From contig DSCO01000057.1 in assembly GCA_011049045.1 (NCBI GenBank), positions 8,015 through 72,014 on the forward strand: a DNA stretch of 64,000 nucleotides, in the 5' to 3' direction. Within the stretch, counting starts at the first letter, position 1. Every line of letters begins with the position of its first letter. A program made the translations under genes and the position numbers. The notes under the pieces were generated by a model. It searched no databases, was not told the DNA's origin, and worked only from the letters and a program-made list of their open reading frames with translations. Below, one piece after another: positions 11,549 to 59,229 of the stretch. The DNA is from Methanomicrobia archaeon (lineage in GTDB: Archaea > Halobacteriota > Syntropharchaeia > Alkanophagales > Methanospirareceae).

Positions 11549-11813
11549 TCGACCTTGGCGCTGTTCCCGAATTTCGTCACCTTCCGTATGAAGAACCCCT
11601 GAATCCCCTCGAGCTCAAGATGGCTCTGCGCTTGGATCGGAACCCTTTTCATAGGATATCCGTATGATATCCTAATATAAAAACCTTACTCGCGGTGAAC
11701 GCTCACTACTCGTCACTGCACTTTGCAGGGAGGGAACACACCAGAAGATAATAGCAGCCGACGGTACCAACCACTAGCTCATCCTTTCGGAGATACTGTA
11801 CTGACCGAAAAGC

Positions 11814-11822
11814 TTTTATATA
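11814..11822 (+). promoter_or_regulatory. TATA box (TTTTATATA) for histone gene
   Basis: Canonical archaeal TATA ~30 nt upstream of the histone start. Confidence 0.45.
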
Positions 11823-11852
11823 CACGCTTATTACCCGATCATGGTGATAAAA

Positions 11853-12053
11853 ATGGCTGTATTATCAAAAGCACCTGTTACTAAGATCATTCGTAACGCA
11901 GGAGCCGAACGAGTGAGCGAAGATGCCACGGAAAAGCTGGCGCAGCTGCTTGAGTCCTACGGCGCCAAGGTCGCGAAGAAAGCGGTAAGCCTCGCGAAAC
12001 ACGCTGGCCGGAAGACGGTGAAGGCAGAGGACATCCTGAGCGCACTAGAGTAA
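11853..12053 (+). CDS. Archaeal histone (HMf family)
   Basis: 66 aa from second ATG: [22 protein letters not shown]…[15 protein letters not shown] matches HMfB-type histone fold; ORF track begins 4 codons earlier. Confidence 0.85.
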
Positions 12054-14089: not shown

Positions 14090-15319
14090 CTAAAAGAGTT
14101 CCGCAAGCTCGCGCACTATCTCTTCGGCGATGATCCGTTTCTTTCCGTTGATGTGCTTGACGTTACCTGTACCGTTTCGGAGGATGAAGACCTCGTTCTC
14201 TTCCGTGCCGATCCCGCCCTTGCCAATGTCGTTCGCCACGACCATCTGGAGGTTGAGCGCTTCCAACTTCGTCCGCGCACGCCGTATCAGTTCGTCCTCT
14301 GAGACGTTCGTCTCGGCCTTGAAGCCCACGATCACGAGCTGGGGGAATTCCTTCCGCGCCTCGCCGATCAACTTCCGCGTCGGCGCGAAGTGCAGGTGCA
14401 GATCACCGCCCGAGGCGATCTTCACGGTTGCGGGGTCAACGGTGAAATCGGCGATCGCGGCCGAGGAGATGAGCACGTCATAGCCCGTTCGCAGCTCGTT
14501 CAGGCAGGTATCGATCATCTCGTTCGCGGTCTCCACGTGCCGCTCGGTGATCCCCATCATGTTCAGCGCTTTACTGTGCACGAGCGTGACCTCGGCACCC
14601 TGCTTGTAGGCCGCCTTTGCCAGCTCCATGCCCGTTCGGCCCGAACTCCGGTTCGTCAATATTCGTATGGGGTCGATGGGCTCCGCGGTCGGGCCGCCGG
14701 TGACCAGCACGCGTTTGCCCGCGAGCTTCTTGGGTGAGAGCAGATGCTCCGTGGCAAGCACGATCTCAGCGATAGAGACGATCTTAGCGAGCCCTTCCTG
14801 GATCTTCGGGCCCAGTACCGTAACCCCGAGCTGGCGTAACTTATCCAGGTTCTCGATGATCACCGGGCTGTTGAACATTGACTCGTGCATCGCGGGCACG
14901 ATGATCATGGGAATGCCGGAGCCGAAGGCGGTGGTGGCGAAGACGGTCACGGGCGTGTCGGAGACGCCGGTCGCGATCTTATTGAGGGTATTGGCGGTGC
15001 AGGGCGCGATGAGGAAGAGATCGGCCGAGCCCTCCATGCCGAGGAACTCCACGTGCTCAATATCGCCCATCAGCTTCGTGATCGCCTCGTGCCCGGTGGC
15101 ATAATGGAGCGTGTAGGGATGGATGATCTCAGTTGCGGCCCTGCTCATCACGCTGTACACATCGGCACCGTGCCGTATCAGTTCGCGGGAGAGCTCGAAC
15201 GCCCGGACCGCAGCGACCGATCCGGTAACGCCGAGAACGATCTTCTTGCCGAGTAGCGAATGGCTCTTCGTCCCCTTGATCCTGAGTGTGGGGTGGGGTC
15301 TGCGTTCTCTCTCAGCCAT
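14090..15319 (-). CDS. coaBC: Bifunctional phosphopantothenoylcysteine decarboxylase/synthetase
   Basis: 409 aa; N-terminal flavoprotein domain (KKIVLGVTGSVAAVRAFEL) + C-terminal CoaB domain. Confidence 0.9.
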   Translation of the reverse strand: MAERERRPHPTLRIKGTKSHSLLGKKIVLGVTGSVAAVRAFELSRELIRHGADVYSVMSRAATEIIHPYTLHYATGHEAITKLMGDIEHVEFLGMEGSADLFLIAPCTANTLNKIATGVSDTPVTVFATTAFGSGIPMIIVPAMHESMFNSPVIIENLDKLRQLGVTVLGPKIQEGLAKIVSIAEIVLATEHLLSPKKLAGKRVLVTGGPTAEPIDPIRILTNRSSGRTGMELAKAAYKQGAEVTLVHSKALNMMGITERHVETANEMIDTCLNELRTGYDVLISSAAIADFTVDPATVKIASGGDLHLHFAPTRKLIGEARKEFPQLVIVGFKAETNVSEDELIRRARTKLEALNLQMVVANDIGKGGIGTEENEVFILRNGTGNVKHINGKKRIIAEEIVRELAELF

Positions 15320-15336: not shown

Positions 15337-15360
15337 ATGGATGGATGGATGGATGGATGG
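15337..15360. repeat. (ATGG)6 tetranucleotide microsatellite
   Basis: atggatggatggatggatggatgg read directly; overlaps 3' end/trailer of tRNA-Ala. Confidence 0.9.
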
Positions 15361-15430
15361 ACCGGTCGGGATTTGAACCCGAGGCCTCTCACACGCCAAG
15401 CGAGTGATCTTCCACCTGATCTACCGGCCC
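15358..15430 (-). tRNA. tRNA-Ala (anticodon GGC)
   Basis: Hand-folded cloverleaf: acceptor GGGCCGG/CCGGTCC with G3:U70 Ala identity pair, D-stem GATC, anticodon loop TTGGCGT, T-arm TCGGG-TTCAAAT-CCCGA, discriminator A; CCA not encoded. Confidence 0.85.
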
Positions 15431-16240: not shown

Positions 16241-16314
16241 TGGGACCGCCGTGATTTGAACACGGGACAACTCGGTCTTCAGCCGAGCGCTCTCCCAGTC
16301 TGAGCTACGGTCCC
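16241..16314 (-). tRNA. tRNA-Phe (anticodon GAA)
   Basis: Hand-folded: acceptor GGGACCG/CGGTCCC, D-arm GCTC-AGACTGGGA-GAGC, anticodon stem CTCGG/CCGAG loop CTGAAGA, T-arm CCGTG-TTCAAAT-CACGG, discriminator A. Confidence 0.85.
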
Positions 16315-30379: not shown

Positions 30380-30655
30380 TCACTGCTGGTCGTATTTCTG
30401 CTTTAGAACCAGGTATGAGAGTCCGAAACCAATAAAGAATCCGAGGAGTGAGAGCACGGCGGCGAATGCGAAGCCTGCACTATTGCCGGCCCAGCTTTTG
30501 CCGAGCGTAAAACCGCCGAATAAGCCGGTGATAGTAAGTGCCGCGATAAGCAGTGCAAAGGGAAGGGCACGGAAAAAAATATTGCCCTTGATCTTCTCTT
30601 TTAGGTTTACCCACCCGTGCATTTTACAGTTGCTTGCCTGGCGTTCAGCGAACAA
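30380..30655 (-). CDS. Small 2-TM membrane protein
   Basis: 91 aa (or 80 aa from M12); hydrophobic hairpin; immediately downstream of c-subunit-like gene. Confidence 0.4.
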   Translation of the reverse strand: MFAERQASNCKMHGWVNLKEKIKGNIFFRALPFALLIAALTITGLFGGFTLGKSWAGNSAGFAFAAVLSLLGFFIGFGLSYLVLKQKYDQQ

Positions 30656-30660
30656 AGCGG

Positions 30661-30993
30661 CTATATCTTTGTCCAGAGCATGAACGCGATCAAAAGCCCA
30701 TAGATAGCGATAGCTTCTGCAAGAGCGACGAAGATCAACACTCTTCCAGAGACTTCAGGCTTCTCTGCTGTCGCGCCCGCGGCTGCGACGCCCGTGGTTG
30801 CAATGGCCCAACCTGCAGCGAAAGCCGAGCCGATCATGGTGGCAGCGGTTGCCAGTGCGATCCAGGCGCCCTCGGTCATGCCACCGCCTTGGGGGGCTTC
30901 TTCCTGTGCCCCTGCCAGGCCCACGCTCAATCCGGTGAGGAGCAAGAGCAAGCAAAGCGTAAATGCAAACCGGTGTCTCGTTTTTAGGTCCAT
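30661..30993 (-). CDS. Rotary-ATPase c-subunit-like proteolipid with N-terminal signal peptide
   Basis: 110 aa; signal-like N-term, helix-1 Gly motif ([21 protein letters not shown]), loop AEKPE (cf. ARQPE), helix-2 carboxylate [12 protein letters not shown]. Confidence 0.6.
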
Positions 30994-31187
30994 CTCTCTT
31001 TCACCTCTTCATATCTCGAGTTTAGGTATCTGAAGGAGACATACTTGCCACGGCTATATAAAGGAATTGGTTTTTGGATGAAACGGTCGTTAAACCAGCG
31101 CTTTGGAAGACCCGAACAGGAGCGGGCCATCTGCTCGTACGTATTACGAGTCCGGGCAGTCGGGACGGTGCCGCTCACTACACCCGC

Positions 31188-31892
31188 CTACCGTACGTTC
31201 CTGGGCTGCGATTGTGGCTGCAGCACGATAAGCAGCACCTGGTACGTCTTGTCGTACACCTGATCGTGCATCATCAACCTGCCCTTACTGATTCGGCCGC
31301 CATCGTAGTCTTTTGTGGTCATAGTCAGCTCGCCGACCCTCGTCGTCTCACTGGACTCGGGAATTAGCGGAGGAGCCCTGACTGAGGCCACGATGATCGT
31401 TTGGTTCTCGTCCGTTCCCGTCGTTGCATTCACGCTGATGTTCTCGAGTCGGTAATTGTGGTTATCGATGCGCAGATAGCCCTTATAGAGCTGCTCGCTC
31501 TCCTGCGCCATGAGCTCTGCTTTTATCTCCGTGACGGTCTTCTCAGACTCGAGCAGCTCGCGCACCTCAGCCGGCTGCACGCTTCTCACCTGCACGATCT
31601 GGACCCGGAGCAAATGGAACTCACCACTCGACTCGTTCAGGGCGAACCCGGTTCCCTGGTGAAAAAGGGCAATCGGCGCCTCGAGTGCGGCATCCGGTGG
31701 AACATTTGCTACCGTACTGGTCGCTCCGTTCAGATGCTGCGCCTGCAGCGGTATCGCGCCGATCGTGCCCAGGAGCCCGAGCGAGAGCACGAGCAGTACT
31801 GCGACGGCCGCATAGAGTAGCTTCCGCTTTCCGCTTCTCACTTTCTCCTTTCCTCTATTAGTATCTTCTGAGTGAACTATTTTAAATAACAC
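31188..31892 (-). CDS. N-terminally membrane-anchored extracytoplasmic protein, unknown function
   Basis: 234 aa; one N-terminal TM then soluble domain. Confidence 0.45.
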   Translation of the reverse strand: MLFKIVHSEDTNRGKEKVRSGKRKLLYAAVAVLLVLSLGLLGTIGAIPLQAQHLNGATSTVANVPPDAALEAPIALFHQGTGFALNESSGEFHLLRVQIVQVRSVQPAEVRELLESEKTVTEIKAELMAQESEQLYKGYLRIDNHNYRLENISVNATTGTDENQTIIVASVRAPPLIPESSETTRVGELTMTTKDYDGGRISKGRLMMHDQVYDKTYQVLLIVLQPQSQPRNVR

Positions 31893-31922
31893 ACCCTTCG
31901 AGTCGTCCCCAAAAGCCGGTTA

Positions 31923-32846
31923 TTACGTTTTTTCACCTCCATTTCCTGATAAGAACCATTCAGTGAGTTCGATAACGTTCTTCCGTCTGCCTGCATTCTT
32001 CTTGATGATCTGTCCGCGTTCAAGCGCGCGGAGGATACTGTTAAGCGAAGATTTCGGGATCTCCGTCTCGTGTCTGAGATCAGACTGCGTCATCTCGCCG
32101 TTATGCTTCAGCAACGCGTTTACAATGGCGCGCTCGCGATCCGTGAGCGTCTCCATGGTGCGTGCCATCGCCGGCGTTTGCTTTATTTTCATGCTCCTCA
32201 CGCGTGGCTTTTCCACCGGACCGGGCTCGCTTCCCAACCGCACCATAAGGAAGCCGACGCTCAGCATGAGGGAAACGATGGCGAGCAGCACGATGAGAAT
32301 AACATAGCCCGGATCGAAGGCGTTGACGCCCGTCGCTTCGGAGGGCGTGGTCAGCGGCTGCTGGTACGCGATCCACACACCTGGTCCCTGTACTTCGTAG
32401 CCGTGGAATTCCACCACGAGTGACTCGTTCGCGGTTGACACGAGATATTCGAGCTGATCCGAGCAGGTAATTCTACCCAAACTGATCGCGGGGGGCAGAT
32501 AGAAGACGGCCTGATAGGTGGAATAGTTAGCCGTGGTGGTGAAGGTGAGCATCCATCGCTCTCCTGACTTCTCGGTGAGCGCATGCGTGATGGCGTAGAG
32601 CTGCTGTGTCTCAATCTCATAGATATAGTCCGCGGTCTGGAGGAACGGGAGACTCTCAGGATCATTGACATAACCGATCACGAGCGCTTTACCGGTCTCG
32701 TCAACATAGATATCAAGAATGAGCTGGCTGGAGTAGCTTCCCGTATCGTTAAAGGCAAAGGAAAACCCGTCACTGGCAAGACCCGGGGTCGGGGTCGCTA
32801 TGGCTGTGAACAAAAGAACCAGGTACAGTATTCCTGCCGTTTTCAT
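31923..32846 (-). CDS. Membrane-anchored transcriptional regulator: extracellular domain + TM + cytoplasmic winged-HTH
   Basis: 307 aa; signal peptide, ~190-aa ectodomain, TM (GYVILIVLLAIVSLMLSVGFLMV), C-terminal wHTH (TDRERAIVNALLKHNGEMTQSDLRHETEIPKSSLNSILRALERGQIIKK). Confidence 0.6.
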   Translation of the reverse strand: MKTAGILYLVLLFTAIATPTPGLASDGFSFAFNDTGSYSSQLILDIYVDETGKALVIGYVNDPESLPFLQTADYIYEIETQQLYAITHALTEKSGERWMLTFTTTANYSTYQAVFYLPPAISLGRITCSDQLEYLVSTANESLVVEFHGYEVQGPGVWIAYQQPLTTPSEATGVNAFDPGYVILIVLLAIVSLMLSVGFLMVRLGSEPGPVEKPRVRSMKIKQTPAMARTMETLTDRERAIVNALLKHNGEMTQSDLRHETEIPKSSLNSILRALERGQIIKKNAGRRKNVIELTEWFLSGNGGEKT

Positions 32847-32950
32847 CTTGTCCTCTTACCGGCTAGCGGTCCTCAACCACTCTCGTAGCTCTGAAGTTAG
32901 ATTGGTGTGAGAGATACGTAAACTTTACTCCTGGTCGGTACTTCACACAG

Positions 32951-34213
32951 TCATTCGTATCGCAGCGCATCCACCGGCTTGAGCTTTGAGGCGCGATGGG
33001 CTGGAATCACCCCTGCGGCTACGCCAATGCCGACGGCCAGGAGGATCGCGTATACCAGCAGCATCGGGGTGATCTTCGTGGTCAGTTCGCCACCCATTCC
33101 CATCATCCGCATACCGAGCATCGGCAGTAATGACGAAATAGCAGCACCGAGGCAAATCCCTATGACGCCCCCGATGAGGCCGACTATTGCCGCATTTAAG
33201 AGGAAGATCATCATAATGTCACCGTTCTTCGCACCGATGGATTTCATGATCCCAATCTCCTTCGTCTTCTCCAGCACGGACGTGAACATCGTGTTTGCGA
33301 TACCCACGGACCCGACGAGCAACGAAACCGCGGCAATGGCCTCTAAGAACAAGCTCATTGTCTGTGTGACATCACTCATGGTCGCCTGCATAGCTTTTGC
33401 GGACGTCATCCTGAAATCTTCTTTACCTTCCGCAAGGTGCCGGAAGATCCGTAACTTCTCCTTTGCTTCTTCCATGATCTGCTCGACATCATCAGTGTTC
33501 GCGACCTTGATGGTAATCGTATCAAATTCAGCATCGCTAACGTCGTCCAGGACGTCTCGTGCAGCGTCAATGGGCATGATTATGGTACGGTCATTCCCAT
33601 CAAAACCGCCACTTTCTTCTAAGATGCCCACGATCTTGAATGATTTGCCCTCGATAGTGAGTACCCGGTTTACGGTAAGTGGTTGTTTGAACGTGTCTAC
33701 GGCTATGCTGCTGCCAAGGATGACGGCGTTATAGTCCGAGGCCCCGAGTAATCGGCCCGATGCCAGTTTAGCGGTGGTGATCTCTTTCCAGACCAGCGGG
33801 TCAACGCCTTCGATCGAAATGGTGGTCTTTTCACCGAGGTAATAGACCTCACCGGAGCCGGAAACGGTGCCGTGAATAGCGGCAATGCCGTCAATAGTCC
33901 GGAGTACCTGCACGTCTTTTTTCGTCAGGTCTTTGGCATCAGTAGCAGCAGCGGTTTCACCGCCTCCCGGCCCACCACCCGGCGGGCCACGGAACCCCGC
34001 AGCAGCACGCCCGCCGCCGGGAGAGATGGTGATGAGGTCCGCGCCGAGCCCGCCAAGGTGACTCTCGACATTCGCCTGCATGCCCTCACCGATGGACACG
34101 ATGGCAACGACGGCCGCGATCCCGATGACGATCCCGAGAATCGTCAGCCAGCTACGCAGCTTACTGTGGGCGATGATATTGAGCGCTAATTTGAGTGACT
34201 TGCTCGGTTTCAT
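32951..34213 (-). CDS. ABC transporter permease, FtsX/MacB family
   Basis: 420 aa; N-terminal TM, large periplasmic loop, C-terminal FtsX 3-TM bundle. Confidence 0.85.
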   Translation of the reverse strand: MKPSKSLKLALNIIAHSKLRSWLTILGIVIGIAAVVAIVSIGEGMQANVESHLGGLGADLITISPGGGRAAAGFRGPPGGGPGGGETAAATDAKDLTKKDVQVLRTIDGIAAIHGTVSGSGEVYYLGEKTTISIEGVDPLVWKEITTAKLASGRLLGASDYNAVILGSSIAVDTFKQPLTVNRVLTIEGKSFKIVGILEESGGFDGNDRTIIMPIDAARDVLDDVSDAEFDTITIKVANTDDVEQIMEEAKEKLRIFRHLAEGKEDFRMTSAKAMQATMSDVTQTMSLFLEAIAAVSLLVGSVGIANTMFTSVLEKTKEIGIMKSIGAKNGDIMMIFLLNAAIVGLIGGVIGICLGAAISSLLPMLGMRMMGMGGELTTKITPMLLVYAILLAVGIGVAAGVIPAHRASKLKPVDALRYE

Positions 34214-35646
34214 CGTTTCACTCGTTCGTTATTCTCGCGTGCAGATCTGATCAAGACCGCGTTCTTCGCTTTTCGTTTTTTTTTTATATACCGGAAAAAG
34301 AGCACGCCGGCACTGATGATCGCAACGAGCGCGAGTGCACCGATAACCGTGGTACTGTTCACGGCGCTCTGGTGCTGCCCTTGCGGGTACCTGCCGCCGG
34401 TGCCTGTAGCCGAAGTAGTCGTATCGGTACTCGCCGCCCGGAGCTGAACTGGCACGGCCTTCTCGAGTGTTTGCCGTACGCCGGTCGTGTCGGTGTACTC
34501 GATAGCGACCATCAGGTTAGGGCTCGTCGAGCTGTTTCGTGGCGAAAACTCCGCTCTCAGTCTCTCCCGGTCTTCCCCCGGGAATTCTGCCAGTTGGCTG
34601 TCTTCTGTGGTGCCCGGGATCCCGAACGCGGACGGGCCTGCGGCCGTTACCGCGAACGAGACGATCGTATAGTCTCCCTTGTCGAGGTTGCCAACGATCG
34701 AGGCGGCGCTACCCTGGGCGGTGAACTGATCTTGCGCAAGGATTTTCACGGTCACGGAATACGCAGGATTATTACCGGTATTCGCAACGTAGAGCGAGAC
34801 CTGACTACTTGAACTCTCGGAGACGATGATCTCAAAATCGGTACTGCCGCCGATGACGATGCCCGCGGTCGTGCTCATCGATCTCGAGCCACCGCGCTCG
34901 TCCTCGAACTCCAGGGCCAGGTCTAACCGGTACAGGCCGGCATCGGCACCCACATCGACGGCAACCAGATACTCGACGACGATGGATTCGCCGACGTCGA
35001 TGTAGCGGATGTGCTTCGTATTGTCGGAATGAACCGGCAGTATGACGCCGTTTGCTTCGGTCCATGAGAAGACCATATTCTCCAGGTGATACGAACCGAT
35101 ATTAGCGACGGTAAACCGGAGCGCAGTCAACTCCCCGGGCTTCAGCTCGGTCGGGGCGATGTCAGCGATATGGATGATCGCGCCCTGCGTTACCGTGAGC
35201 ATGAGCGAGTAGGCGACTTCGGGCATGGCCTCAGTAACCGTTTCCCCACCCGTGCTATAGGATTGACTATACGAGCAGGAGACCGGAATGGCATGGGACC
35301 CACTTGGCGCGCCCTTCGCGACACGAACGGTGACGGGCACGTCTCTGGAGCACCACCCGGAGATCGAGCCGGCATAGATGCTTGACGAGCCAACGACCGA
35401 GATATACTGACTTTCCTCGAAATTAAGCGTTACGTGCTTTGCATCGCAGGAACCTCCGTTCTTGAGGGTAACGGTCAGCGTTTTCGTCTCGCCGGGCAGG
35501 AGTTCTGTAGGCTTGACGTTTGTTATAACAACGTTTGCATCAGTGCCCGCGCTTAGTGGAGCAACGAGAGACGCGAGTATTGCCACGATACCACACAAAG
35601 CCAGTACCCTTTTCATGTTTTTTCTAGATACTAATTTCGTTATCAT
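34210..35646 (-). CDS. Large extracytoplasmic protein with tandem CARDB/DUF11-like β-sandwich repeats and C-terminal TM anchor
   Basis: 478 aa; signal peptide; two similar modules (VVITNVKPTELLPGETKTLTVTLKNGG / IIHIADIAPTELKPGELTALRFTVANIG); C-terminal TM + basic tail; start overlaps upstream gene (ATGA). Confidence 0.6.
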   Translation of the reverse strand: MITKLVSRKNMKRVLALCGIVAILASLVAPLSAGTDANVVITNVKPTELLPGETKTLTVTLKNGGSCDAKHVTLNFEESQYISVVGSSSIYAGSISGWCSRDVPVTVRVAKGAPSGSHAIPVSCSYSQSYSTGGETVTEAMPEVAYSLMLTVTQGAIIHIADIAPTELKPGELTALRFTVANIGSYHLENMVFSWTEANGVILPVHSDNTKHIRYIDVGESIVVEYLVAVDVGADAGLYRLDLALEFEDERGGSRSMSTTAGIVIGGSTDFEIIVSESSSSQVSLYVANTGNNPAYSVTVKILAQDQFTAQGSAASIVGNLDKGDYTIVSFAVTAAGPSAFGIPGTTEDSQLAEFPGEDRERLRAEFSPRNSSTSPNLMVAIEYTDTTGVRQTLEKAVPVQLRAASTDTTTSATGTGGRYPQGQHQSAVNSTTVIGALALVAIISAGVLFFRYIKKKRKAKNAVLIRSARENNERVKR

Positions 35647-35663
35647 TTACCTTTTACCTCCTT

Positions 35664-35963
35664 TTATATTACTAATTCAGCTAATTCTTCGGGTGTTCTG
35701 CCAGATACCTTCTTTATTGTATAGTCCGCTAATTTCAACCCATCGTTCTTATCTAGGTCTGGATAATACAGCACCCGAATCGCTTCTCTTATAGTATCAG
35801 CGGCGTTATGCAGGTTATCACTCCCATTTGGTTTGTTTTTCTGTATCTGCATATCGTAGCAGTGCGCTTTGTTTCCACAAAGTTCACACAACCCGTACCG
35901 TATCGGATAGCTACTCACCGGACACCCCAGGAAGTAATTAACGCAATCTTCACAAATCAGCAT
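35664..35963 (-). CDS. Small Cys-rich (zinc-ribbon-like) protein
   Basis: 100 aa from MLICEDCVNYFLGCP…CELCGNKAHC; located between ABC ATPase and CARDB-like gene. Confidence 0.4.
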   Translation of the reverse strand: MLICEDCVNYFLGCPVSSYPIRYGLCELCGNKAHCYDMQIQKNKPNGSDNLHNAADTIREAIRVLYYPDLDKNDGLKLADYTIKKVSGRTPEELAELVI

Positions 35964-35973
35964 GGTTCTCACC

Positions 35974-36687
35974 TCAGTTGTTCGTATGGTTATGCTCGAT
36001 GCGCTCGATTTGTCCGTCTTTGAGGTACACCACCCGTTCCGCACGCGTAACCAGGTAGAAATCGTGCGTGACCAGAATGATCGTTTTACTATCGTTCCCG
36101 TGTACCTCGCTCAACAAATGCATGATGAATTCGCCGGTCTTGCTGTCCAGATTACCGGTAGGCTCGTCGGCGAGTATGATGTCAGGATCAACGGCCAGAG
36201 CACGCGAGATGGCCACACGCTGCTGCTGCCCGCCTGAGAGTTGAGCGGGCAGGTGGTGCACGCGATCGCCCAATCCAACCAGCTCGAGCAGCTCGAACGC
36301 GGTCTCCCGTGCCTCTGCGGAGTCGACATCCTGGAATTCCAGGGGCAGCATCACATTCTCGAGCGCGGTTAACGTCGGTATCAGGTTGAACTGCTGGAAT
36401 ACGAATCCGATCTTCTTGCCACGTATCTGCGCCAATTGCGACTCGTGGAACCGCGCGATATCAGCACCGTCCAGCCGTATTGTACCCTTACTCGGCAGAT
36501 CCAGACAGCCAATGAGGTTCATCATCGTGCTCTTGCCGCTGCCACTGACACCGGCGATGGCGAGGAATTCGCCGCGCTCTATCGTCAGATCAATGCCCCG
36601 GAGCGCCTGCACCTGAACGTCACCCATCTGATAGATTTTCCAGACTGCTTCCAGCTGGATGACCGCATCAGTACCCGGGGTGCTCAT
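35974..36687 (-). CDS. ABC transporter ATP-binding protein (MacB/LolD-like)
   Basis: Walker [10 protein letters not shown], signature [14 protein letters not shown], Walker [12 protein letters not shown]; GGAGGTG SD before ATG 36687. Confidence 0.9.
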
Positions 36688-36889
36688 AGCCCACCTCCGA
36701 GCGGAGCTGCACGCACGCCGCGATGACCATGAGCGCCTCGACACGAGGTGGTGAACTGCGGTGCTCCCATCGGTGCTCTTTCAGCAGTTGCTGCTGCGTT
36801 CGCTTTCATCTTCGCTTCACGTTTTTTTCCCGGCTCTTTTTTTTCAGCTATCTTCGGTGCTGTTTCCCAGAGGGGGATTAGAAATAAAC

Positions 36890-36960
36890 TATACATAAGT
36901 CTTCCTTTTTTACCAATTTCCACCCAAATCTGTACCAAATTCGCGGAACCTCCGTTTCAC
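36890..36960 (-). promoter_or_regulatory. Conserved promoter/operator element, copy 1 (upstream of ABC exporter operon)
   Basis: Minus-strand GAATTTGGTACAGATTTGGGTGGAAATTGGTAAAAAAGGAAGACTTATGTATAGTTTATTT; shared ~70-nt element present three times in 2 kb. Confidence 0.5.
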
Positions 36961-36999
36961 TCGATCATGTAGGCCACGGCTTCACCGATCGTCGTAACG

Positions 37000-37131
37000 T
37001 TACATGCTCAGACCGTCACTAACGCCATACGCATCCGTCGCGTATTGCTGCCGGTAAGCGTTGTACGAGGCAGATGTCGAGACGAGCAAGAGTATAGCGA
37101 GTACAGCAATGATTACGTTTTTACGGTCCAT
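37000..37131 (-). CDS. Small secreted peptide (43 aa precursor)
   Basis: MDRKNVIIAVLAILLLVSTSASYNAYRQQYATDAYGVSDGLSM; GGAGGT SD 8 nt upstream; conserved element copy 2 ~65 nt upstream; not in supplied ORF track (below length cutoff). Confidence 0.4.
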   Translation of the reverse strand: MDRKNVIIAVLAILLLVSTSASYNAYRQQYATDAYGVSDGLSM

Positions 37132-37189
37132 TTAGTTCCATTACCTCCATTCGTTTCTTTTTATTTCGTGTGTCTCCACGAGTACCAGT

Positions 37190-37270
37190 ATAGAATAAGC
37201 TAATCATAAGCGCTTCTTTTTTACCAATTTCCACCCAAATCGTTCACAAATTCGTTTGCAACTGTTTAGT
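37190..37270 (-). promoter_or_regulatory. Conserved promoter/operator element, copy 2
   Basis: Minus-strand GAATTTGTGAACGATTTGGGTGGAAATTGGTAAAAAAGAAGCGCTTATGATTAGCTTATTC. Confidence 0.5.
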
Positions 37271-37300
37271 AAGCGTTAGTAAGCACGTTTCAGAGCGCAG

Positions 37301-37621
37301 CTAGTCGGGTTTCAGGCTGATATAGAGCAGAATAGCTAGTGCCGCAAATTCGAACCATTGGGACACGATCTTGAGCAAGCCCAGGGCATTGAGGCGGTGA
37401 AAACCCCACACCAGATGGATAAACGGGTGCGAGGTGACCGCTTGCACCAGCAGGAGAATAACGAAGCCGATCAAGCCGAGCGCGAACTTCGATTTGATCT
37501 GCTCGTAGTTCTTGATATAAAGGGCGAGCAGACACAGTAACAGTATGACGTTCCCGAGCGTAATCAGCGCATGAAAATCGATAATCACTGTCTCTGGCGG
37601 CGGCATAGGCATTGGTGACAT
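37301..37621 (-). CDS. Small 3-TM membrane protein, paralogue A
   Basis: ~106 aa from MSPMPMPPPETV; ~60% identical to 38697..39011 (…NYEQIKSKFALGLI.FV.LL.VQA…LLYISLKPD). Confidence 0.55.
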   Translation of the reverse strand: MSPMPMPPPETVIIDFHALITLGNVILLLCLLALYIKNYEQIKSKFALGLIGFVILLLVQAVTSHPFIHLVWGFHRLNALGLLKIVSQWFEFAALAILLYISLKPD

Positions 37622-37825
37622 TGTTCCCCCCTCGGTCTGCACGTATCTATTACCCGCAGCATACTTAAAACACTCCTCCATCCCCTGGTTCTCATCATCG
37701 TCGTCGTGCTAATACCACGTCACGTAAAAGCGGAAAAAAGGGTGCGTGGGAGCGAGCAGAGGAGAACCCACGCACCATACTCCTTTTCTCCCTTATGGCG
37801 ACTATACTATACTGTCTCTGTTCAC

Positions 37826-38536
37826 CTATTCCTCCAGATCTGGAGAGTTGAACGGGCCCTCCAGCTCTGGAGAGTTGAACGGGCATTCACCGAATCCCGG
37901 TCCGCGTTGGAATCCCAGCATCTGTCGGCCCACAGGTCCGCGCGGACCGTGGCCACCGTCACCCGCGAATTGGGGCCCTGCTGGACATGAGATACCGTAC
38001 TGCTCGAACAGTTCCTGGTGGAATTCCTGTATCTGCTGCTGTATTGCTTCGCGCTCTTCATCCGTCAGGTTGGCACCGCAGTGTCTCGGGAACCCCGGTC
38101 TCCCCTCGTCCGGCAAGTCGATACCGTACTGCTCAGCCAGTTCGAGCCGGAACTGTTGCATTTTCTGCTGCAGTTCCTGTCGCTCCTCGTCTGTCAGGGC
38201 GATGCCGTACTGCTGGGCGAGTTCCTGCTGGAACTGCTGCAGTTCCTGTCGTTGCTCCTGTTGCTTCTCCCGGAGTCGGTTCTGCATCTCCTGTCTTTCT
38301 TCGTCCGTCAGGGTGACGCCGTACTGCTCAGCCAGCTGCAGCCGGAACTGCTCCATCTGCTGGTGCATCCCTTGCCGCTCCTCGTCTGTCAACTGCCCCA
38401 GTCCACAGTGACCGCCGAACCATCCGCCTTTTTCCCGTAATGCGGTATCCTCGTTTGTAATCTGTGCGGAGACCATGGCGAAGGCTGTTGCGATGAGTGC
38501 CAGCGCCAGAATACCTGCGATCAGTTTTCGTTTCAT
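37826..38536 (-). CDS. Secreted repeat protein with CpxP/Spy-like LTxxQ-type motifs
   Basis: Starts MKRKLIAGILALALIATAFA (signal peptide) after AGGAGGTG SD; five ~33-aa repeats LTDEERQEMQ…LAEQYG…; Cys-containing C-terminal tail with PFNSPELEG duplication. Confidence 0.65.
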   Translation of the reverse strand: MKRKLIAGILALALIATAFAMVSAQITNEDTALREKGGWFGGHCGLGQLTDEERQGMHQQMEQFRLQLAEQYGVTLTDEERQEMQNRLREKQQEQRQELQQFQQELAQQYGIALTDEERQELQQKMQQFRLELAEQYGIDLPDEGRPGFPRHCGANLTDEEREAIQQQIQEFHQELFEQYGISCPAGPQFAGDGGHGPRGPVGRQMLGFQRGPGFGECPFNSPELEGPFNSPDLEE

Positions 38537-38597
38537 CTTCGTGCGTTGCACCTCCTATTTTTTCGTTTCACGATGTGTTGCCACGGTTATTAGATCC

Positions 38598-38672
38598 AAA
38601 TAACTAGACATAAGCATTTGTTCTTTCCCAAATTCCACCCGATTGTGGCCCAAATTCAGCCAGAAAGTCGTG
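38598..38672 (-). promoter_or_regulatory. Conserved promoter/operator element, copy 3
   Basis: Minus-strand GAATTTGGGCCACAATCGGGTGGAATTTGGGAAAGAACAAATGCTTATGTCTAGTTATTTGG. Confidence 0.5.
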
Positions 38673-38696
38673 TTGCCCGGCCTGTAAGTTAGTCAG

Positions 38697-39011
38697 TCAG
38701 TCGGGCTTGAGGCTGATGTACAGCAGTACCGCCAGTGCCACGAATTCGAAGAGATCAGGCACGATGGTGAGCAGGCCCATAGCGTGAATATGGCGGAAGC
38801 CCCGCACGGCGGGCAGGAAGGGATTGGTGGTGAAGGCCTGCACGATGAGCAGGACGACAAAGGCGATCAAGCCGAGCGCGAACTTCGATTTGATCTGCTC
38901 GTAGTTCCTCGCGTAGATGAACAGCAACGCGAGCAGGAGGAGCACGTTGCCCAGCGCGATGAGCGCCTGGAGATACATGAGCCACAGGTGTGGCACCGGT
39001 TGTGGTGGCAT
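38697..39011 (-). CDS. Small 3-TM membrane protein, paralogue B
   Basis: 104 aa; paralogue of 37301..37621. Confidence 0.55.
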   Translation of the reverse strand: MPPQPVPHLWLMYLQALIALGNVLLLLALLFIYARNYEQIKSKFALGLIAFVVLLIVQAFTTNPFLPAVRGFRHIHAMGLLTIVPDLFEFVALAVLLYISLKPD

Positions 39012-39028
39012 CCTCTTCCCTTCACCTC

Positions 39029-39334
39029 TTACTCCTTCTCGCCCCTGCTCTTAAATTTGTTCCATACCTTGTCCAGATACTCTTTAAAGACCTCATACTC
39101 GCTCTCCATGCCTTCGGACAGGAAATATGCCGTGCCATAGCCGCCTCCTGCTTCGGTGATCACTTTGTTCTCCAGCAGGACCTTGAGATGGTGGCGCACC
39201 GTTTTGTAATCCAGATCCAGTATTTCTGAGAGCTGATTGGCGTTGTACGGTCGTTCATTCAAGGCGCGTAGTATCCGTGCACGATTCACCCCGCCTTTCG
39301 TACCCACGATCAGCCACCAGATTACCCGTCGCAT
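39029..39334 (-). CDS. Winged-HTH transcriptional regulator
   Basis: 101 aa; NRARILRALNERPYNANQLSEILDLDYKTVRHHLKVLLENKVI HTH; first gene of the minus-strand locus. Confidence 0.6.
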   Translation of the reverse strand: MRRVIWWLIVGTKGGVNRARILRALNERPYNANQLSEILDLDYKTVRHHLKVLLENKVITEAGGGYGTAYFLSEGMESEYEVFKEYLDKVWNKFKSRGEKE

Positions 39335-47939: not shown

Positions 47940-48479
47940 ATGCCATTTTCAGAACGGATAAAACAAGAAGCTAGAAAGAAAGCAGCTTTTCAGTGCTGCA
48001 TTTGCAAAAGATCCGGTTTGAGTTTAGAAGTGCATCACATTATTCCCGAAAGTCCAGATGGCCCTTCAGACATAGAAAACGCAATAGTTTTATGTTCGAG
48101 TTGCCACGCAATTTATGGAGCAAATCCAGAAAAGCGAAAAATGATGAAACAGTGTAGGGATGATTGGTATGATAAGGTTGATAGAATGTACGGACAACAA
48201 GCAATTGATATATTTTCCTCAGCTTTTGAAATTCATGAGCAACAACTATCTAATTTATCTTCTGAAGTAAATGATTTAAAGACTCGTTTACGAGAATATA
48301 TGAATCAGTCGATTAATGAAATGGAAATCACCCCAGAGACAGTTCTGGTCACAGTATCAGAGTTCATCAACGCATCAACATTATATCAACCTAAATCAGA
48401 TCGTTGTGTAAAATGCGGCTATATGTTAAGAAAAACTGATTTATACTGCCCCCATTGCGGGGAACCTACGTCATTATAA
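47940..48479 (+). CDS. HNH endonuclease-domain protein with C-terminal zinc ribbon
   Basis: 179 aa; CCICKRSGLSLEVHHIIP…NAIVLCSSCH; C-terminal CVKCGY…CPHCG; in AT-rich segment. Confidence 0.7.
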   Translation: MPFSERIKQEARKKAAFQCCICKRSGLSLEVHHIIPESPDGPSDIENAIVLCSSCHAIYGANPEKRKMMKQCRDDWYDKVDRMYGQQAIDIFSSAFEIHEQQLSNLSSEVNDLKTRLREYMNQSINEMEITPETVLVTVSEFINASTLYQPKSDRCVKCGYMLRKTDLYCPHCGEPTSL

Positions 48480-48596
48480 TGTTACCCTGCTCATCCTTTA
48501 TGCGGCGGAAGCGTTCTCTCAACGCTATGAGGTGCCACCTAGAAAACGCTAGGAATGAGTAGGTAATTGCTAAAGAGAATTAGAATGCTTCTTCTT

Positions 48597-49466
48597 TCAC
48601 TCAAAGGCTTCAGAATAGGATCTTTTGAGGAGGTTTGTTAGGAAATCTGCTTTGTTAGTAACGTCAGACTTTGACAATCTAATGCGATACCGTCCCCATT
48701 TATCATAATCCATTAAATCTAGCCCACTTTCAGTAATTTCATTTTTAAGTTCTTCAGATTTTTTCATTCTTACTTCTAATCTCAAAGCATTTTTTTGGGG
48801 CCTGAAAACAACAAAATTTTTTGGTTGTCGTTCCTGTGATAACCCAATATAAAATTTGGTGTAATTAAGATCAAAATCTGGAGCAAAAGTGTGAATATAA
48901 TCTAGTAGCTTGTCGACCAGAGCGACTGTCTCCTTTGTCCCTCTCTTTTTCTCCCAATAGTTTCTATCGACAAGTTCTTTTTCTTCATCTTCTTCTTCAT
49001 ATCCTAGTGTCATTTGATCCAATACTGTTGTGAATATCAGAGAAATTTTTTCTTCATATCTTACTGCTTTCATTTGTATAGCGATAAGTGGGATAAATCC
49101 GTTGAACAGGCTTATGACGTTGAGAAATCTGCTAGTTATGTCCTCTGCAATTAATACGGCCGTATGGTCATAATTAGGATACCTTTTTCTTTCGATGTCC
49201 CAATACTCTATTGTACGAATTATGTGACTCTCGTCTGTGCTCCCTAACTGTACTTCAACTTCGTATCTTCTAAATGAATCAGGATCCTGTAGTAGAAGGT
49301 CGAGGCGACCAGCTCTAGGGAAAATCCTTTCCCTATCTTTTAGCAGCAAATCACCGAGTCCGAGAATGGATGGATCTTCCGAGATTTTATCCTGAACCCA
49401 TGATTCATTATAGGTCGGATGATTCTTAAGTGAGACGTTTTCAAACTTGATATATTTTTCGGACAT
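48597..49466 (-). CDS. PD-(D/E)xK-like nuclease-fold protein with uncharacterised C-terminal domain
   Basis: ~289 aa from MSEKYIKF; GRLDLLLQD … YEVEVQLG resembles restriction-endonuclease-like core; in AT-rich segment. Confidence 0.45.
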   Translation of the reverse strand: MSEKYIKFENVSLKNHPTYNESWVQDKISEDPSILGLGDLLLKDRERIFPRAGRLDLLLQDPDSFRRYEVEVQLGSTDESHIIRTIEYWDIERKRYPNYDHTAVLIAEDITSRFLNVISLFNGFIPLIAIQMKAVRYEEKISLIFTTVLDQMTLGYEEEDEEKELVDRNYWEKKRGTKETVALVDKLLDYIHTFAPDFDLNYTKFYIGLSQERQPKNFVVFRPQKNALRLEVRMKKSEELKNEITESGLDLMDYDKWGRYRIRLSKSDVTNKADFLTNLLKRSYSEAFE

Positions 49467-49620
49467 TGCTAAGAACCCCCTCAAAACCCCCTCTTTTAAT
49501 CAAATTATCTGCAATCAGAATTATCTTCTTCTTTATATTTAAATTTTCGCCTCAAACCCACCCTATTTTCGGCTTCCTTAAGCGCGTTGCTGTTTTTCGT
49601 CTTCTCAGTGAAGACCAGCA

Positions 49621-50736
49621 ATGGCTCTTGAAGAAGAAGCCGAACTCGATGCACTCTTGCAGGCCTTAGCCCGGCCCGGAGCGGATGGCGAATACCCGCT
49701 GCCCGAAGAGAAGCCGATCAAGTATACGAACGTTGACGTCGTTGTGCTTCCGCACGGCTACAAATCAGAGTATCCGAAGCCCGAGCAGAAAGACGAGGAC
49801 GCTACGGCGGAGAACGATTCAATCGCGCAGTTCACCGACTCGTTCGCGCTGAAACTCGACGAGGCGACCGAAGAAGACGGGACGCTCCGCGTGCCCGCAA
49901 CCATCGCGCATTCCAAGCACGTCTATGGCTACAACGACGGCGCGATCAAAGCGGTGAAGCCGTTCAGCGAGCTCGAAGCCGCCGCGCGGTTCGCTAACGG
50001 CATACCGGTCACGCGCGACCATCCGAAGGCGGGGATCGTGACCATGCGCGACCAGGTGCTCGGATTCCTGCGCGATCCGCGTGCAGAAAGCGACGTGCTC
50101 ACCGGCATACTCGAAATATCAGACAAAGATCTGATCGCGGACATCAAGGCAGAGAAGCTCAGCGACGTCTCGCCCGGGTACTTCTGCACGCTCGATACGA
50201 GCGACGAAGCGCGCGGATCGCTCGGCGACGGCAAGGAATACAACGCGGTACAGCGCGAGATCTTCCTCAATCACGTCGCAGTCTGCGCGGAAGGCCGGTG
50301 CTCGTCGCGGGACGGCTGCGGGCTCAATATCGTGCCCACCACCACAACCGAAAGCGCAGAGCAACCTGCAGAACAGCCCGATCAGTCCGCTACAGTCTCG
50401 CAGCTCCAGGAAGCGAAGGACGCGGTCGCGCGGTTGAAGCGCGAGCGCGCGGAAGCAGCGGCGCAGCGTGACGAAGCGGTCGCGCAGCGTGACGCATTGC
50501 AGCAGAAGCTCGCCGAGCTCGTGCAAGCGGAGAAGGACGCGCTCGTTGCAGAGCTCACCACGCTGCAGGACACGAAGACTGAATCAGATCTGCAGGCGCT
50601 CGATCTTGACGCGCTAACGAAAGAGCTCGATATGGTCAAAGGCCTGCGCACTGCGCGGTTAGCCGCGCCACGGAGCGAAGTTAAGGGCAGAGCACGCATC
50701 GATGAGGTGTATGGAAAGATAGGAGGTACAGGATAG
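49621..50736 (+). CDS. Phage prohead protease/scaffold-like protein (putative)
   Basis: 371 aa; acidic N-term, central domain, long Ala/Glu/Gln coiled-coil C-terminus typical of scaffolding proteins; assignment tentative. Confidence 0.4.
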   Translation: MALEEEAELDALLQALARPGADGEYPLPEEKPIKYTNVDVVVLPHGYKSEYPKPEQKDEDATAENDSIAQFTDSFALKLDEATEEDGTLRVPATIAHSKHVYGYNDGAIKAVKPFSELEAAARFANGIPVTRDHPKAGIVTMRDQVLGFLRDPRAESDVLTGILEISDKDLIADIKAEKLSDVSPGYFCTLDTSDEARGSLGDGKEYNAVQREIFLNHVAVCAEGRCSSRDGCGLNIVPTTTTESAEQPAEQPDQSATVSQLQEAKDAVARLKRERAEAAAQRDEAVAQRDALQQKLAELVQAEKDALVAELTTLQDTKTESDLQALDLDALTKELDMVKGLRTARLAAPRSEVKGRARIDEVYGKIGGTG

Positions 50737-58003: not shown

Positions 58004-58082
58004 AGCACAATGAGGTCAACTGCAACGTGAAGAGCGGATTGGTGATTGGTATCTACGATCATCCTCCGGGGGTGGTGGCGTT

Positions 58083-58523: not shown

Positions 58524-58663
58524 TTTGGACGTGGCAGGATAAATAAAAACTGAAAAATAACTGGGGATATAAGACTGAGTCACCATAGAAATAAGCTTGT
58601 AAACTTTACAATTGACTATTATTCTGCTAAATTTAATGTTATATTTTTGATCATTTAAACGAA

Positions 58664-58990: not shown

Positions 58991-59229
58991 GATTCGATAC
59001 GGCACATCCTCATGCGGCCTGAGCAGTGCGGCCCACGCGGCTGGCGGCTATGCGCGTGGAGCCGCGCGCAGGGTATTCTACGCGACGAGCGCCGCTCCGC
59101 ACAGAAGAGAAAAGTAACGCCAGCCGTGAAGGCGGTAGCGTGCACGTAAAGCGCGCTTTCATAAAATTGCTGAAAAAGAGTAACCTTTTTATGAGCACCT
59201 ACTGACAGAACCAAAAGAGGTTTTAGAAA

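Follow-up and report, generated by a model that had tools for sequence, protein, structure and literature searches.

A candidate extracytoplasmic stress or divalent-metal regulon in archaea, built on a winged-helix regulator paired with a DUF8036 membrane protein

RESULTS AND DISCUSSION

Gene content of the locus

We examined a locus at positions 30380 to 39334 of a 64-kb stretch of DNA from a Methanomicrobia archaeon (hereafter, the window), in which a gene for a winged helix-turn-helix (wHTH) regulator is followed by a gene for a small membrane protein of the DUF8036 family, and copies of a shared promoter element precede genes for a secreted repeat protein and an ATP-binding cassette (ABC) system. 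Coordinates refer to the forward strand of the window, and the features of the locus lie on its minus strand. A preliminary description, made from the DNA sequence, had listed 13 minus-strand open reading frames (ORFs) here, and an ORF check found every one of them. We assigned gene identities with Pfam, NCBIfam, and precomputed annotation; calls of membrane or secreted proteins come from a crude hydropathy scan, with simple heuristics for signal peptides and topology. The statement that all of the genes are secreted, membrane embedded, or regulatory held for most of them, the exceptions being the ABC ATPase and a Cys-rich protein, which have no transmembrane (TM) segment or signal peptide. 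The genome bins nearest to the window are those of Candidatus Methanospirareceae and relatives, in the order Methanophagales (ANME-1).

A conserved pair of regulator and membrane protein

The wHTH gene (39029-39334) encodes a protein of 101 amino acids (aa) with an ArsR/Phr-like winged helix (Pfam HTH_5, E 7.6e-11). The protein scores below the NCBIfam cutoffs for the SdpR subfamily (NF033789, 26.2 bits vs 100) and for HTH_metalloreg (31 bits vs 55). Its closest solved relative is Phr of P. furiosus (2p4w, E 0.006), and the NCBIfam Phr model matches at E 1.3e-4. It contains no Cys, its only two His residues sit in the recognition helix (RHH), and a Cys/His metal site of the alpha3N or alpha5 type is absent. 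The C-terminal helix is conserved, as YxxFxEYLDKVWNKFK and, in ANME-2 and Bathyarchaeia, as ...FEEIWEKIGNKFK. The gene for DUF8036 membrane protein B (38697-39011; PF26119, 104 aa, three TM segments) lies 17 nt downstream in the same orientation and has its own Shine-Dalgarno sequence.

We collected related loci by a degenerate-pattern scan of one genome per GTDB species, which returned 57 loci from ANME-1, ANME-2, GoM-Arc1/Argoarchaeum, Methanoxibalbensis, Bathyarchaeia, and a few DPANN. All relatives compared here are metagenome derived (individual loci and contigs are cited by our labels, L003 and so on), and we counted loci as they stand, ignoring kinship. The wHTH-DUF8036 pair occurs in 57 genome loci and approximately 40 metagenome contigs (ANME-1, ANME-2, GoM-Arc1, Bathyarchaeia). 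By tblastn, the wHTH gene is directly upstream of the DUF8036 gene in 53 of 56 genome loci; two of the other three are cut by contig ends, and one is a second copy. Across ANME-1 and ANME-2, the wHTH protein is 63 to 93% identical and DUF8036 39 to 87%, which makes the regulator more conserved than its membrane partner. The pairing also holds at 41 to 53% identity in Bathyarchaeia and an unclassified archaeon.

In the window and in Methanospirareceae-like relatives, the gene directly upstream of the pair encodes a P-type ATPase whose best matches, below the cutoffs, are Ca2+ pumps of the PMR1/SERCA type. Two Bathyarchaeia loci have a gene for an HtrA/DegP-type protease (Trypsin plus PDZ) close upstream of the pair on the opposite strand; it adjoins the pair in L064 (4215-5462), and three short ORFs lie between in L066 (3094-4323).

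A second DUF8036 gene, for membrane protein A (37301-37621; PF26119, 106 aa from the ATG after GAGGGGGG), has no wHTH gene in front of it. Proteins A and B are paralogues with 68% identity, and hydropathy gives each three hydrophobic helices. An AlphaFold2 (AF2) model also shows three, with a mean predicted local distance difference test (pLDDT) score of 63.1, too poor for fold comparison. Second copies are also present in L003 to L006, L008, L010, L060, L087, and L090. The homologues are unnamed proteins of ANME-1, "Methanomicrobia," and Bathyarchaeia bins, and a HMMER search of 1.84 billion representatives returned 643 clusters at 50% identity, the named ones being from uncultured archaea.

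The DUF8036 loop NYEQIKSKFALGL is invariant in the alignment and predicted to be cytoplasmic, and the predicted outer loop of protein B reads NPFLPAVRGFRHIH. Longer DUF8036 proteins have an extra N-terminal TM segment and an ectodomain, which in Bathyarchaeia P0148 contains LTDEQRREIAQLMKEL / WYLTDEQRREIAQLMKEL; these extensions point to a topology with the N-terminus of the core outside and the invariant loop inside. A Cys is present in the outer loop in all 18 non-redundant loci with a secreted partner of the DxDGDGxC type (e.g., CMHAAACGRRMC, HYTCGWRRMY) and absent from it in all nine loci with an LTxxQ-type partner (e.g., HxxWGFRH); one hybrid has the Cys. We considered SdpI as a family for DUF8036 and rejected it, since none of 25 DUF8036 sequences matched Pfam SdpI at E <= 1.

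A shared promoter element

A repeat search found a 61-nt repeat family with three copies in the window (38598-38658, 37194-37254, and 36883-36943), so that the conserved promoter reported earlier is real and occurs three times rather than twice. The element is built of tandem (G/A)ATTTGGG repeats at 11-bp spacing followed by a TATA-like box; on the coding strand it reads GAATTTGG-N5-ATTTGGGTGGAAATTGG, an A-rich tract, and GCTTATG...TTATTT. As complete putative operator/promoters, copy a (38598-38664; GAATTTGGGCCACAATCGGGTGGAATTTGGG, A-rich stretch, GCTTATG, TTATTT) is upstream of the repeat-protein gene, copy b (37194-37259) is upstream of a 43-aa ORF, and copy c (36881-36944) is upstream of the ABC operon. 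Over 61 nt, copies b and c share 82% identity. The 26-nt core gave two exact matches vs 0.00 expected from 100 shuffles, and nhmmer, with a profile built from the three copies, detected no other in the 64 kb. Copy b has a 5' untranslated region (5' UTR) of the secreted-protein type (CTCGTGGAGACACACG) and is collinear with the element before a second repeat-protein gene ("repeat2") of L087 and L090. Orthologues of copy c precede the ABC gene in L003, L004, L008, L010, L016, L018, L019, L060, L088, and L112.

An iterated nhmmer profile detected the element in 44 of the 57 genome loci. It was always oriented with the genes, and in most cases it began at the DUF8036 stop codon or just past it. The relatives have two to six head-to-tail (G/A)ATTTGGG units with an 11-bp period, followed in ANME-1 by an A-rich stretch and GCTTATG...TTATTTCC and in ANME-2 directly by TAATTATATATA; the TATA-like box takes the form TTATTT in ANME-1 and TATATATA in ANME-2. 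In Bathyarchaeia, the corresponding position holds a degenerate version, AAATCTGG-TG-AAATTCTG plus TTTATATA. The distance from element to start codon is nearly constant, at approximately 50 nt in ANME-1 and 85 nt in ANME-2. Considering 60 elements together, the next gene encodes a secreted protein of the D or L type in 39 cases, the ABC ATPase in eight, and DUF8036 in two, the remaining 11 being cut off or other. An independent metagenome scan with the pattern GAATTTGGGNNNGATTYNGGNNNRATTTGG returned 46 contigs, approximately 40 of them with wHTH/DUF8036 genes upstream and/or secreted-protein or ABC genes downstream; five look like chance matches.

Units of membrane protein, promoter, and secreted product had been described as duplicated, and the repeats in the window, L028, and L087/L090 bear out that they are duplicated as blocks. 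In L028 (4796-4990), a C-terminal fragment of a DUF8036 gene stands ahead of a second copy of the element, after the FtsX gene, which indicates that the 3' end of the DUF8036 gene, the element, and the secreted-protein gene were duplicated together.

The mRNAs of the secreted proteins have a common 5' UTR motif, AACCGTGGAGACACGTT(A)n-AGGAGGTG, between the TATA-like box and the start codon. It is found in the window (at approximately 38575-38592 and 37165-37180) and in L008, L009, L012, and L016, and it is absent from the ABC leader.

The secreted acidic repeat protein

The gene behind copy a (37826-38536) encodes a protein with a signal peptide and 236 aa, counted from the ATG at which the deposited gene starts; the ORF is also open from a GTG. 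Four LTDEER...xEQYG[VI] helical modules are complete and one, starting LPDEGR, is degenerate, which corrects an earlier count of five modules; the Gly/Arg/Pro-rich tail contains Cys. Every orthologue has the signal peptide MKTKLIAGI(L/V)VLALVATA and a tail that is rich in Gly and Arg and contains Cys; the N-terminal MKRKLIAGILALALIATAFAMVSAQ, called as a signal peptide by the hydropathy heuristic, is conserved throughout the family. The body is made up of LT(D/E)E(E/Q)R...QEFRQELxEQYGI helices in the window and near relatives and of (F/Y)VDxDGDG(I/V)CDN repeats, with EF-hand/Excalibur-like DxDxDGxxC(D/E) loops, in ANME-2, GoM-Arc1, and other ANME-1. Proteins in L007, L008, L013, and L060 combine both module types, which argues for a single family in which modules were swapped. 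The window protein keeps a decayed loop, FAGDGGHG, vs FVDEDGDG in relatives.

A resemblance to the LTxxQ stress chaperones CpxP, Spy, and ZraP had been proposed. The family lends it partial support: at E <= 0.01, Metal_resist (PF13801) matches 23 of 29 members, with a best E of 2.1e-8, and LTXXQ (PF07813) matches two, whereas neither model matches the window protein itself at E <= 0.1. JGI labels several family members "Spy/CpxP family." The motif occurs in the window as four LTDEER, with E in place of Q at position 5, and in relatives as LTEEQ or LTDEQ. Sequence searches of the PDB with the repeat protein alone and with the family profile gave chance-level matches (Spy 3o39, E 0.25), and the D-type secreted proteins match only Excalibur in Pfam, below threshold (E 0.035). 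We rejected the one Pfam match of the window protein above the cutoff, to SASP, which scores 36.6 against a cutoff of 22, because it is produced by the repeated xEQYG[VI]xLT motif; it covers only positions 6 to 36 of the 59 in the model, and the protein is archaeal and has a signal peptide.

A terminator-like hairpin with a T6 run (37734-37776; GGTGCGTGGG...CCCACGCACC) can be read from the sequence just after the repeat-protein gene, and a matching hairpin and T-run are present in L060 (approximately 14170-14220), where the gene order differs. At the 3' end of the gene itself, a 27-nt tandem duplication (37831-37884, 96% identical) doubles the encoded sequence to GPFNSPELE / GPFNSPDLE; relatives have a single P(P/T)xPPDLEE at the C-terminus of the repeat protein.

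The 43-aa ORF as a protease-gene stump

The ORF downstream of copy b (37000-37131) encodes 43 aa with a hydrophobic N-terminus and had been taken for the gene of a secreted peptide. By tblastn, it matches the N-termini of ORFs of 254 aa in L087 and 262 aa in L090 at 66 to 68% identity, on these two contigs only, and it is absent from L003 and L004. Besides an N-terminal anchor, the L087 protein carries a Lon_C (S16) protease domain (Pfam E 2.6e-13, above the cutoff), and it gives a sub-threshold match to the extracellular SepM family. In a blastn comparison with L087, the window aligns in three pieces: 37565-37155 comprises the gene for DUF8036 A (memA), the element, and the 5' UTR of a second secreted-protein gene; 37148-37038 comprises the ribosome-binding site and approximately the first 31 codons of the protease gene; and 36998-36878 comprises approximately the last 40 nt of the protease gene and the element of the ABC operon. 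This three-piece map indicates that the window lost approximately 670 bp, with the second secreted-protein gene, and approximately 630 bp, with the body of the protease. Judging from these alignments, the 43-aa ORF is what remains of the 5' end of a Lon_C protease gene, of which L087 and L090 keep intact copies; we treat it as a pseudogene, and it is not a conserved peptide gene. We also considered the ORF as a truncated paralogue of the repeat protein and rejected this origin; the DNA alignment shares only the promoter and 5' UTR, and the Lon_C origin accounts for the ORF.

The ABC/COG1361/FtsX cassette and its leader

Copy c precedes four genes. The first encodes a 237-aa ABC ATPase of the LolD/MacB/FtsE type (35974-36687; Pfam ABC_tran), with best NCBIfam matches to LolD, MacB, and YbbA and no C39 peptidase domain. 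It is followed by genes for a 99-aa protein with a CxxC...CxxC arrangement (35664-35963), a COG1361/CARDB-like surface protein (34210-35646; Pfam CARDB and NPCBM_assoc, N- and C-terminal TM segments), and a MacB-type permease (32951-34213; Pfam MacB_PCD E 5e-36 and FtsX E 4e-22, NCBIfam MacB and LolCE), the last overlapping the COG1361 gene by 4 nt. The CARDB-like protein appears at NCBI as "COG1361 S-layer family protein." Along with Ig-like domains and a Thr-rich linker, it has a signal or anchor at the N-terminus and, at the C-terminus, a TM segment followed by a basic tail; it has no sequence relative in the PDB. No gene for a membrane-fusion protein or outer-membrane factor is present in the window locus or related loci, and the COG1361 protein occupies the partner position.

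The COG1361 gene lies between the ABC and FtsX genes wherever we examined the cassette, namely in ANME, the unclassified archaeon L052, Aenigmarchaeota (L113), and L114. The 99-aa CxxC gene is kept between the ABC and COG1361 genes in L003, L004, L010, L060, and L090, and a gene of approximately 106 aa holds its position in L113. The cassette follows the pair in 13 of 56 genome loci (ANME-1, ANME-2, L052). Gene order varies: in Bathyarchaeia it is wHTH, DUF8036, a 188-aa protein, FtsX, and ABC, and in L060 the secreted-protein gene and second DUF8036 gene come after the cassette.

Cassettes of the ANME-1 type have a leader of approximately 190 nt with an open frame of 37 to 41 codons. In the window, this upstream ORF (uORF; 36684-36809) has 41 codons (MKANAAATAERAP...), its TGA overlaps the ABC ATG (ATGA), and base pairing is possible between its 3' part and the start region of the ABC gene. 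A uORF ends at the same place in at least nine distinct lineages, with a variable N-terminal half and a C-terminus conserved as ...GAHxKFGVRxPxGGRL. We argue that the uORF is translated, because the frame stays open in at least nine divergent versions. Codon-position entropy at its 3' end is 10.7/9.8/10.0 (five unique sequences), without an excess at the third position, so the conservation there may be at the RNA level. The leaders of relatives contain a stem of 10 to 17 bp, GAGGGGCTCATAG/CTATGAGCCCCTC, which closes around the Shine-Dalgarno sequence and a small hairpin and sequesters the ABC ATG (e.g., L003 9254-9335, L090 4619-4700, L061 9567-9648, and L019 562-643). Rfam detected no known RNA family in the locus, including the leader.

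A candidate stress or divalent-metal regulon

The explanation that we consider best, and hold with moderate confidence, is that the locus is one case of a conserved archaeal signaling-and-response unit, an extracytoplasmic stress or divalent-metal regulon gated by wHTH-DUF8036 and found in ANME-1, ANME-2, GoM-Arc1, Bathyarchaeia, and some DPANN. The sequences themselves show the gene pair; the architecture, positions, and conservation of the putative operator; which genes lie downstream of it; how the protease gene decayed; and the leader ORF with its stem. Two observations tie the secreted protein to DUF8036, namely the outer-loop Cys that goes with the type of partner and the ectodomain sequence of P0148. 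A stress or metal theme runs through the unit in the Metal_resist matches, the DxDxDGxxCD loops, the Lon_C protease of relatives, the HtrA protease of two Bathyarchaeia loci, and the Ca2+-type ATPase upstream. The preliminary description had offered an envelope-stress regulon as one of two options, and it fits the evidence better than the other, a bacteriocin or peptide-signal locus.

In the mechanism that we propose, the wHTH protein would bind the ATTTGGG repeats cooperatively, along a single face of the helix and beside or across the B recognition element (BRE) and TATA box, and so set transcription, as either an activator or a repressor; the last repeat sits where a BRE would be. DUF8036 would hold the wHTH protein at the membrane or release it through the invariant cytoplasmic loop, perhaps against the C-terminal helix of the regulator, and its outer loop would read an extracytoplasmic cue. 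That cue would most likely be a disturbance of the cell surface, such as excess divalent metal or Ca2+ or damaged surface proteins. The secreted protein may work at the outer loop as a co-sensor or feedback modulator, in a role like that of CpxP toward CpxA or ZraP toward ZraS, and may also serve as a buffer or chaperone. The response would have three arms: the secreted protein, which would bind metal or act like a chaperone; a protease at the surface; and an ABC machine of the mechanotransmission type with its Ig-like partner. In the ABC operon, translation of the leader ORF, which ends on the ABC start codon, could open the ABC start as a second layer of control.

Several observations weigh against this regulon. 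We infer binding of the wHTH protein to the repeats from their co-occurrence only, and ArsR-family proteins usually bind inverted repeats, not head-to-tail ones. No ATTTGGG repeats are present within 150 nt upstream of the wHTH start in approximately 70 loci, so the autorepression loop that defines SdpR/SdpI is absent; given also a TATA-like box approximately 25 nt before the ATG, the pair looks constitutive, with an mRNA that is probably leaderless. DUF8036 has no detectable similarity to SdpI or to any characterized sensor. The correlation of the outer-loop Cys with partner type would link the secreted protein to DUF8036, yet it is suggestive only, because few clades are involved and kinship was ignored. 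The window repeat protein matches neither LTXXQ nor Metal_resist at E <= 0.1, and its AF2 model (four long helices), a low-confidence one at pLDDT 59.5, has no Foldseek match in the PDB at E <= 0.001. The adjacent P-type ATPase is confined to the Methanospirareceae-like clade. The cassette is found in approximately 7 of the 31 loci with at least 3 kb of downstream sequence, about a quarter, and L113 and L114 have it without the wHTH-DUF8036 pair, so it can exist alone. As for the leader, the fold reaches z scores of -4.2 to -4.8 vs shuffles in relatives, whereas the stem in the window (36664-36809) is mismatched, with z +0.3, and RNAalifold gives little covariation.

A more specific form of the proposal, which we offer tentatively and would not call probable, is a three-part sensing system so far confined to uncultured archaea, in which the outer loop of DUF8036 is the docking site of a small secreted protein that binds Ca2+ or another metal or resembles a chaperone, and DUF8036 in response tethers or releases an ArsR-like regulator that reads the head-to-tail ATTTGGG repeats. 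If true, such a system would take the place, in archaea, of two-component and anti-sigma signaling at the envelope, and it would give a handle on how methane- and alkane-oxidizing archaea sense their mineral and partner environment.

Comparison with known systems

In the SdpR/SdpI system of Bacillus subtilis, an ArsR-family autorepressor is sequestered by a membrane immunity and signaling protein upon binding of the secreted SdpC, and three-TM members of the SdpI family correspond to the half that is thought to sequester SdpR (PMC2910880). As in that system, an ArsR-type wHTH gene here lies immediately upstream of a co-oriented gene for a small multi-pass membrane protein, with a secreted protein encoded beside them. 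Unlike it, DUF8036 is not similar to SdpI, the wHTH protein scores 26 bits against the SdpR cutoff of 100, and the operator is absent from the promoter of the pair; the targets here would be downstream genes, and the secreted partner resembles a chaperone or metal binder rather than a toxin.

The likeness to CpxP-CpxAR and ZraP-ZraSR of Enterobacteria is that a secreted helical LTxxQ/Metal_resist-like protein is encoded beside a sensor and regulator and presumably under their control. No histidine kinase or response regulator is present here, in contrast to those systems, and we propose a one-component wHTH protein with a three-TM partner instead; in addition, the window protein fails the Pfam models, and the partner in most lineages has DxDxDG loops, not LTxxQ helices. 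The Cpx/Bae response includes an efflux-type machine and proteases (DegP, Spy, Mdt), a parallel to the ABC machine and proteases of this unit. Overall, the unit resembles SdpR/SdpI and CpxP/ZraP in its logic, but membership of either family is not supported; three comparisons bearing on SdpRI membership came out negative.

The ABC system shares with MacB, FtsEX, LolCDE, and BceAB (type VII mechanotransmission) a separate LolD/MacB-like ATPase and a four-TM permease with MacB core and FtsX domains, and with Bce-type systems a place in what would be a stress-responsive unit. It differs from MacB-type systems in having no membrane-fusion protein or outer-membrane factor; its fixed partners are the anchored COG1361 Ig-like protein and the CxxC protein of approximately 100 aa. 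The Phr protein of Thermococcales, an ArsR-like heat-shock repressor (2p4w), is an archaeal stress regulator of the same fold class as the wHTH protein, but it has approximately 200 aa, a C-terminal dimerization domain, and no membrane partner, as opposed to 101 aa here. Phr binds a palindromic site over the transcription start, and the repeats here are head to tail and upstream of the TATA box.

How archaea sense conditions beyond their membrane is very poorly understood. ANME and alkane-oxidizing archaea are uncultured or slow growing and live in consortia rich in metal sulfide and carbonate. In our searches of a paper library, we found no mention of DUF8036, of a unit of this kind, or of archaeal equivalents of the Cpx, Zra, Bae, sigma-E, or SdpRI circuits, in agreement with the earlier remark that the gene set is undescribed in archaea. 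Literature searches on ANME with ArsR and MacB, archaeal envelope stress, CpxP/ZraP/Spy, MacB/CARDB, and COG1361 with ABC in archaea returned nothing relevant. The locus is a compact, testable candidate, with a regulator, a membrane partner, an operator conserved from ANME-1 to ANME-2 and recognizable in Bathyarchaeia, and a short list of targets. The clean operator would allow existing metatranscriptomes to be read for a signal of surface or metal stress, and the parts could be tested heterologously, e.g., in Methanosarcina. The analysis also gives a first functional context to DUF8036 and to the widespread archaeal ABC/COG1361/FtsX cassette, and it removes a false lead, the 43-aa "peptide."

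Alternative explanations

A narrower version of the regulon would be a unit dedicated to the homeostasis of a divalent cation (Ca2+/Mn2+ or a heavy metal), in which the secreted acidic Cys proteins buffer or scavenge metal at the surface, DUF8036 senses through His or Cys of its outer loop, and the ABC system and P-type ATPase move the ion. We regard this as rather unlikely. The DxDxDGxxCD repeats and Cys/Gly-rich stretches of most orthologues, the Metal_resist matches in 23 of 29 relatives, an outer-loop His or Cys that tracks the partner type, the ArsR family of the regulator, and the PMR1/SERCA-like ATPase directly upstream in the window and close relatives are what such a unit would contain. 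A wHTH protein without Cys, and without metal-site His outside the recognition helix, is not, and the window protein has lost the DxDxDG loop (FAGDGGHG for FVDEDGDG). Moreover, the Lon_C and HtrA proteases suit protein damage better than ion handling, the linkage of the P-type ATPase is limited to one clade, and the Excalibur match is far under threshold.

The locus might instead serve assembly or maintenance of the cell surface, with the ABC system and COG1361 protein building or remodeling a surface layer, the small secreted proteins as matrix or S-layer components, and the wHTH-DUF8036 pair tuning their supply. This would suit the ABC/COG1361/FtsX cassette, a self-contained and widespread archaeal unit, as well as the Ig-like domains and C-terminal anchor of the COG1361 protein and the small, repetitive secreted proteins with their abundant-looking composition. 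The cassette, however, is not near most wHTH-DUF8036 loci, and the invariant target of the element is the small acidic protein, not the COG1361 protein. A dedicated membrane-coupled regulator and a gated leader also suggest conditional rather than constitutive expression. We consider surface assembly improbable.

It is very improbable that the locus encodes a bacteriocin or peptide signal, with a secreted peptide, immunity-like membrane proteins, an exporter, and regulators, as had been suggested. The gene order is superficially like that of sdpRI/sdpABC and lantibiotic loci, the ArsR-like regulator beside a small membrane protein parallels SdpR/SdpI (PMC2910880), and the Lon_C protease of relatives resembles, below the cutoff, the pheromone-processing SepM family. 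The candidate peptide ORF, though, is a deletion remnant that is not conserved as a peptide, conservation being the test that the preliminary description itself had proposed, and the ABC system belongs to the MacB/LolD type and has no C39 peptidase domain. The secreted products that are conserved have 85 to 280 aa and Sec signal peptides, so no ABC exporter is needed for them, and DUF8036 is not a relative of SdpI.

That the repeated element is a by-product of local block duplication (the DUF8036 3' end plus spacer) with no regulatory role, and its neighbors are neighbors by descent, is scarcely credible: duplicated blocks are visible, as in the DUF8036 fragment before the second element of L028, and copies b and c are highly alike over their 61 nt, but ANME-1 and ANME-2 have the element conserved without conservation of the spacers around it, anything from 2 to 6 of the 11-bp units can occur with phasing kept, the element always abuts a TATA-like box at a fixed distance from start codons, and it precedes the ABC operon also where no DUF8036 fragment is present.

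Neighboring genes and other features of the window

Beyond the permease gene lie genes for a membrane-bound one-component regulator (TM-wHTH; 31923-32846) with a signal peptide, ectodomain, TM segment, and DUF7343 wHTH domain (Pfam E 8.6e-10); an anchored protein (31188-31841), called by hydropathy; a proteolipid (30661-30993; ATP-synt_C); and a small two-TM protein (30380-30622), also called by hydropathy. The genes from wHTH to FtsX are conserved and look co-regulated, so that part of the locus is a block rather than a set of chance neighbors; these last four genes have no copy of the element by nhmmer in the 64-kb window and are syntenic only in the closest relatives. The TM-wHTH gene follows FtsX in L003 and L090 and is possibly linked to the ABC cassette, as its position suggests. 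In L009, the anchored protein, proteolipid, and small TM protein genes come after the pair, separated from it by just a 91-aa secreted-protein gene and with nothing else of the block present, and in L060 the proteolipid and small TM protein genes come after the second DUF8036 gene.

A DUF7343 wHTH gene in Aenigmarchaeota (L113, 2844-3368) lies divergently beside the ABC/~106-aa/COG1361/FtsX cassette and mirrors the TM-wHTH gene after FtsX in the window, which hints at a link of that regulator type to the cassette.

The proteolipid is a stand-alone protein of the ATP-synthase c/K type with a signal-like N-terminal extension, paired with a two-TM protein of 80 to 93 aa and with no ATPase operon nearby. 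Such pairs are found in the window (30380-30993), L003 (15014-15670), L009 (11671-12292), and L060 (15078-15705). The proteolipid is 84 to 95% identical among them, above its neighbors, and keeps its place where the rest of the block is missing.

Elsewhere in the window, the G+C content is low at 10001-12000 (0.46), 48001-50000 (0.42), and 58001-60000 (0.46), vs a usual 0.54 to 0.61. Two minus-strand tRNA genes, Ala-GGC (15358-15430) and Phe-GAA (16241-16314), are the sole Rfam matches in the window at the gathering threshold.

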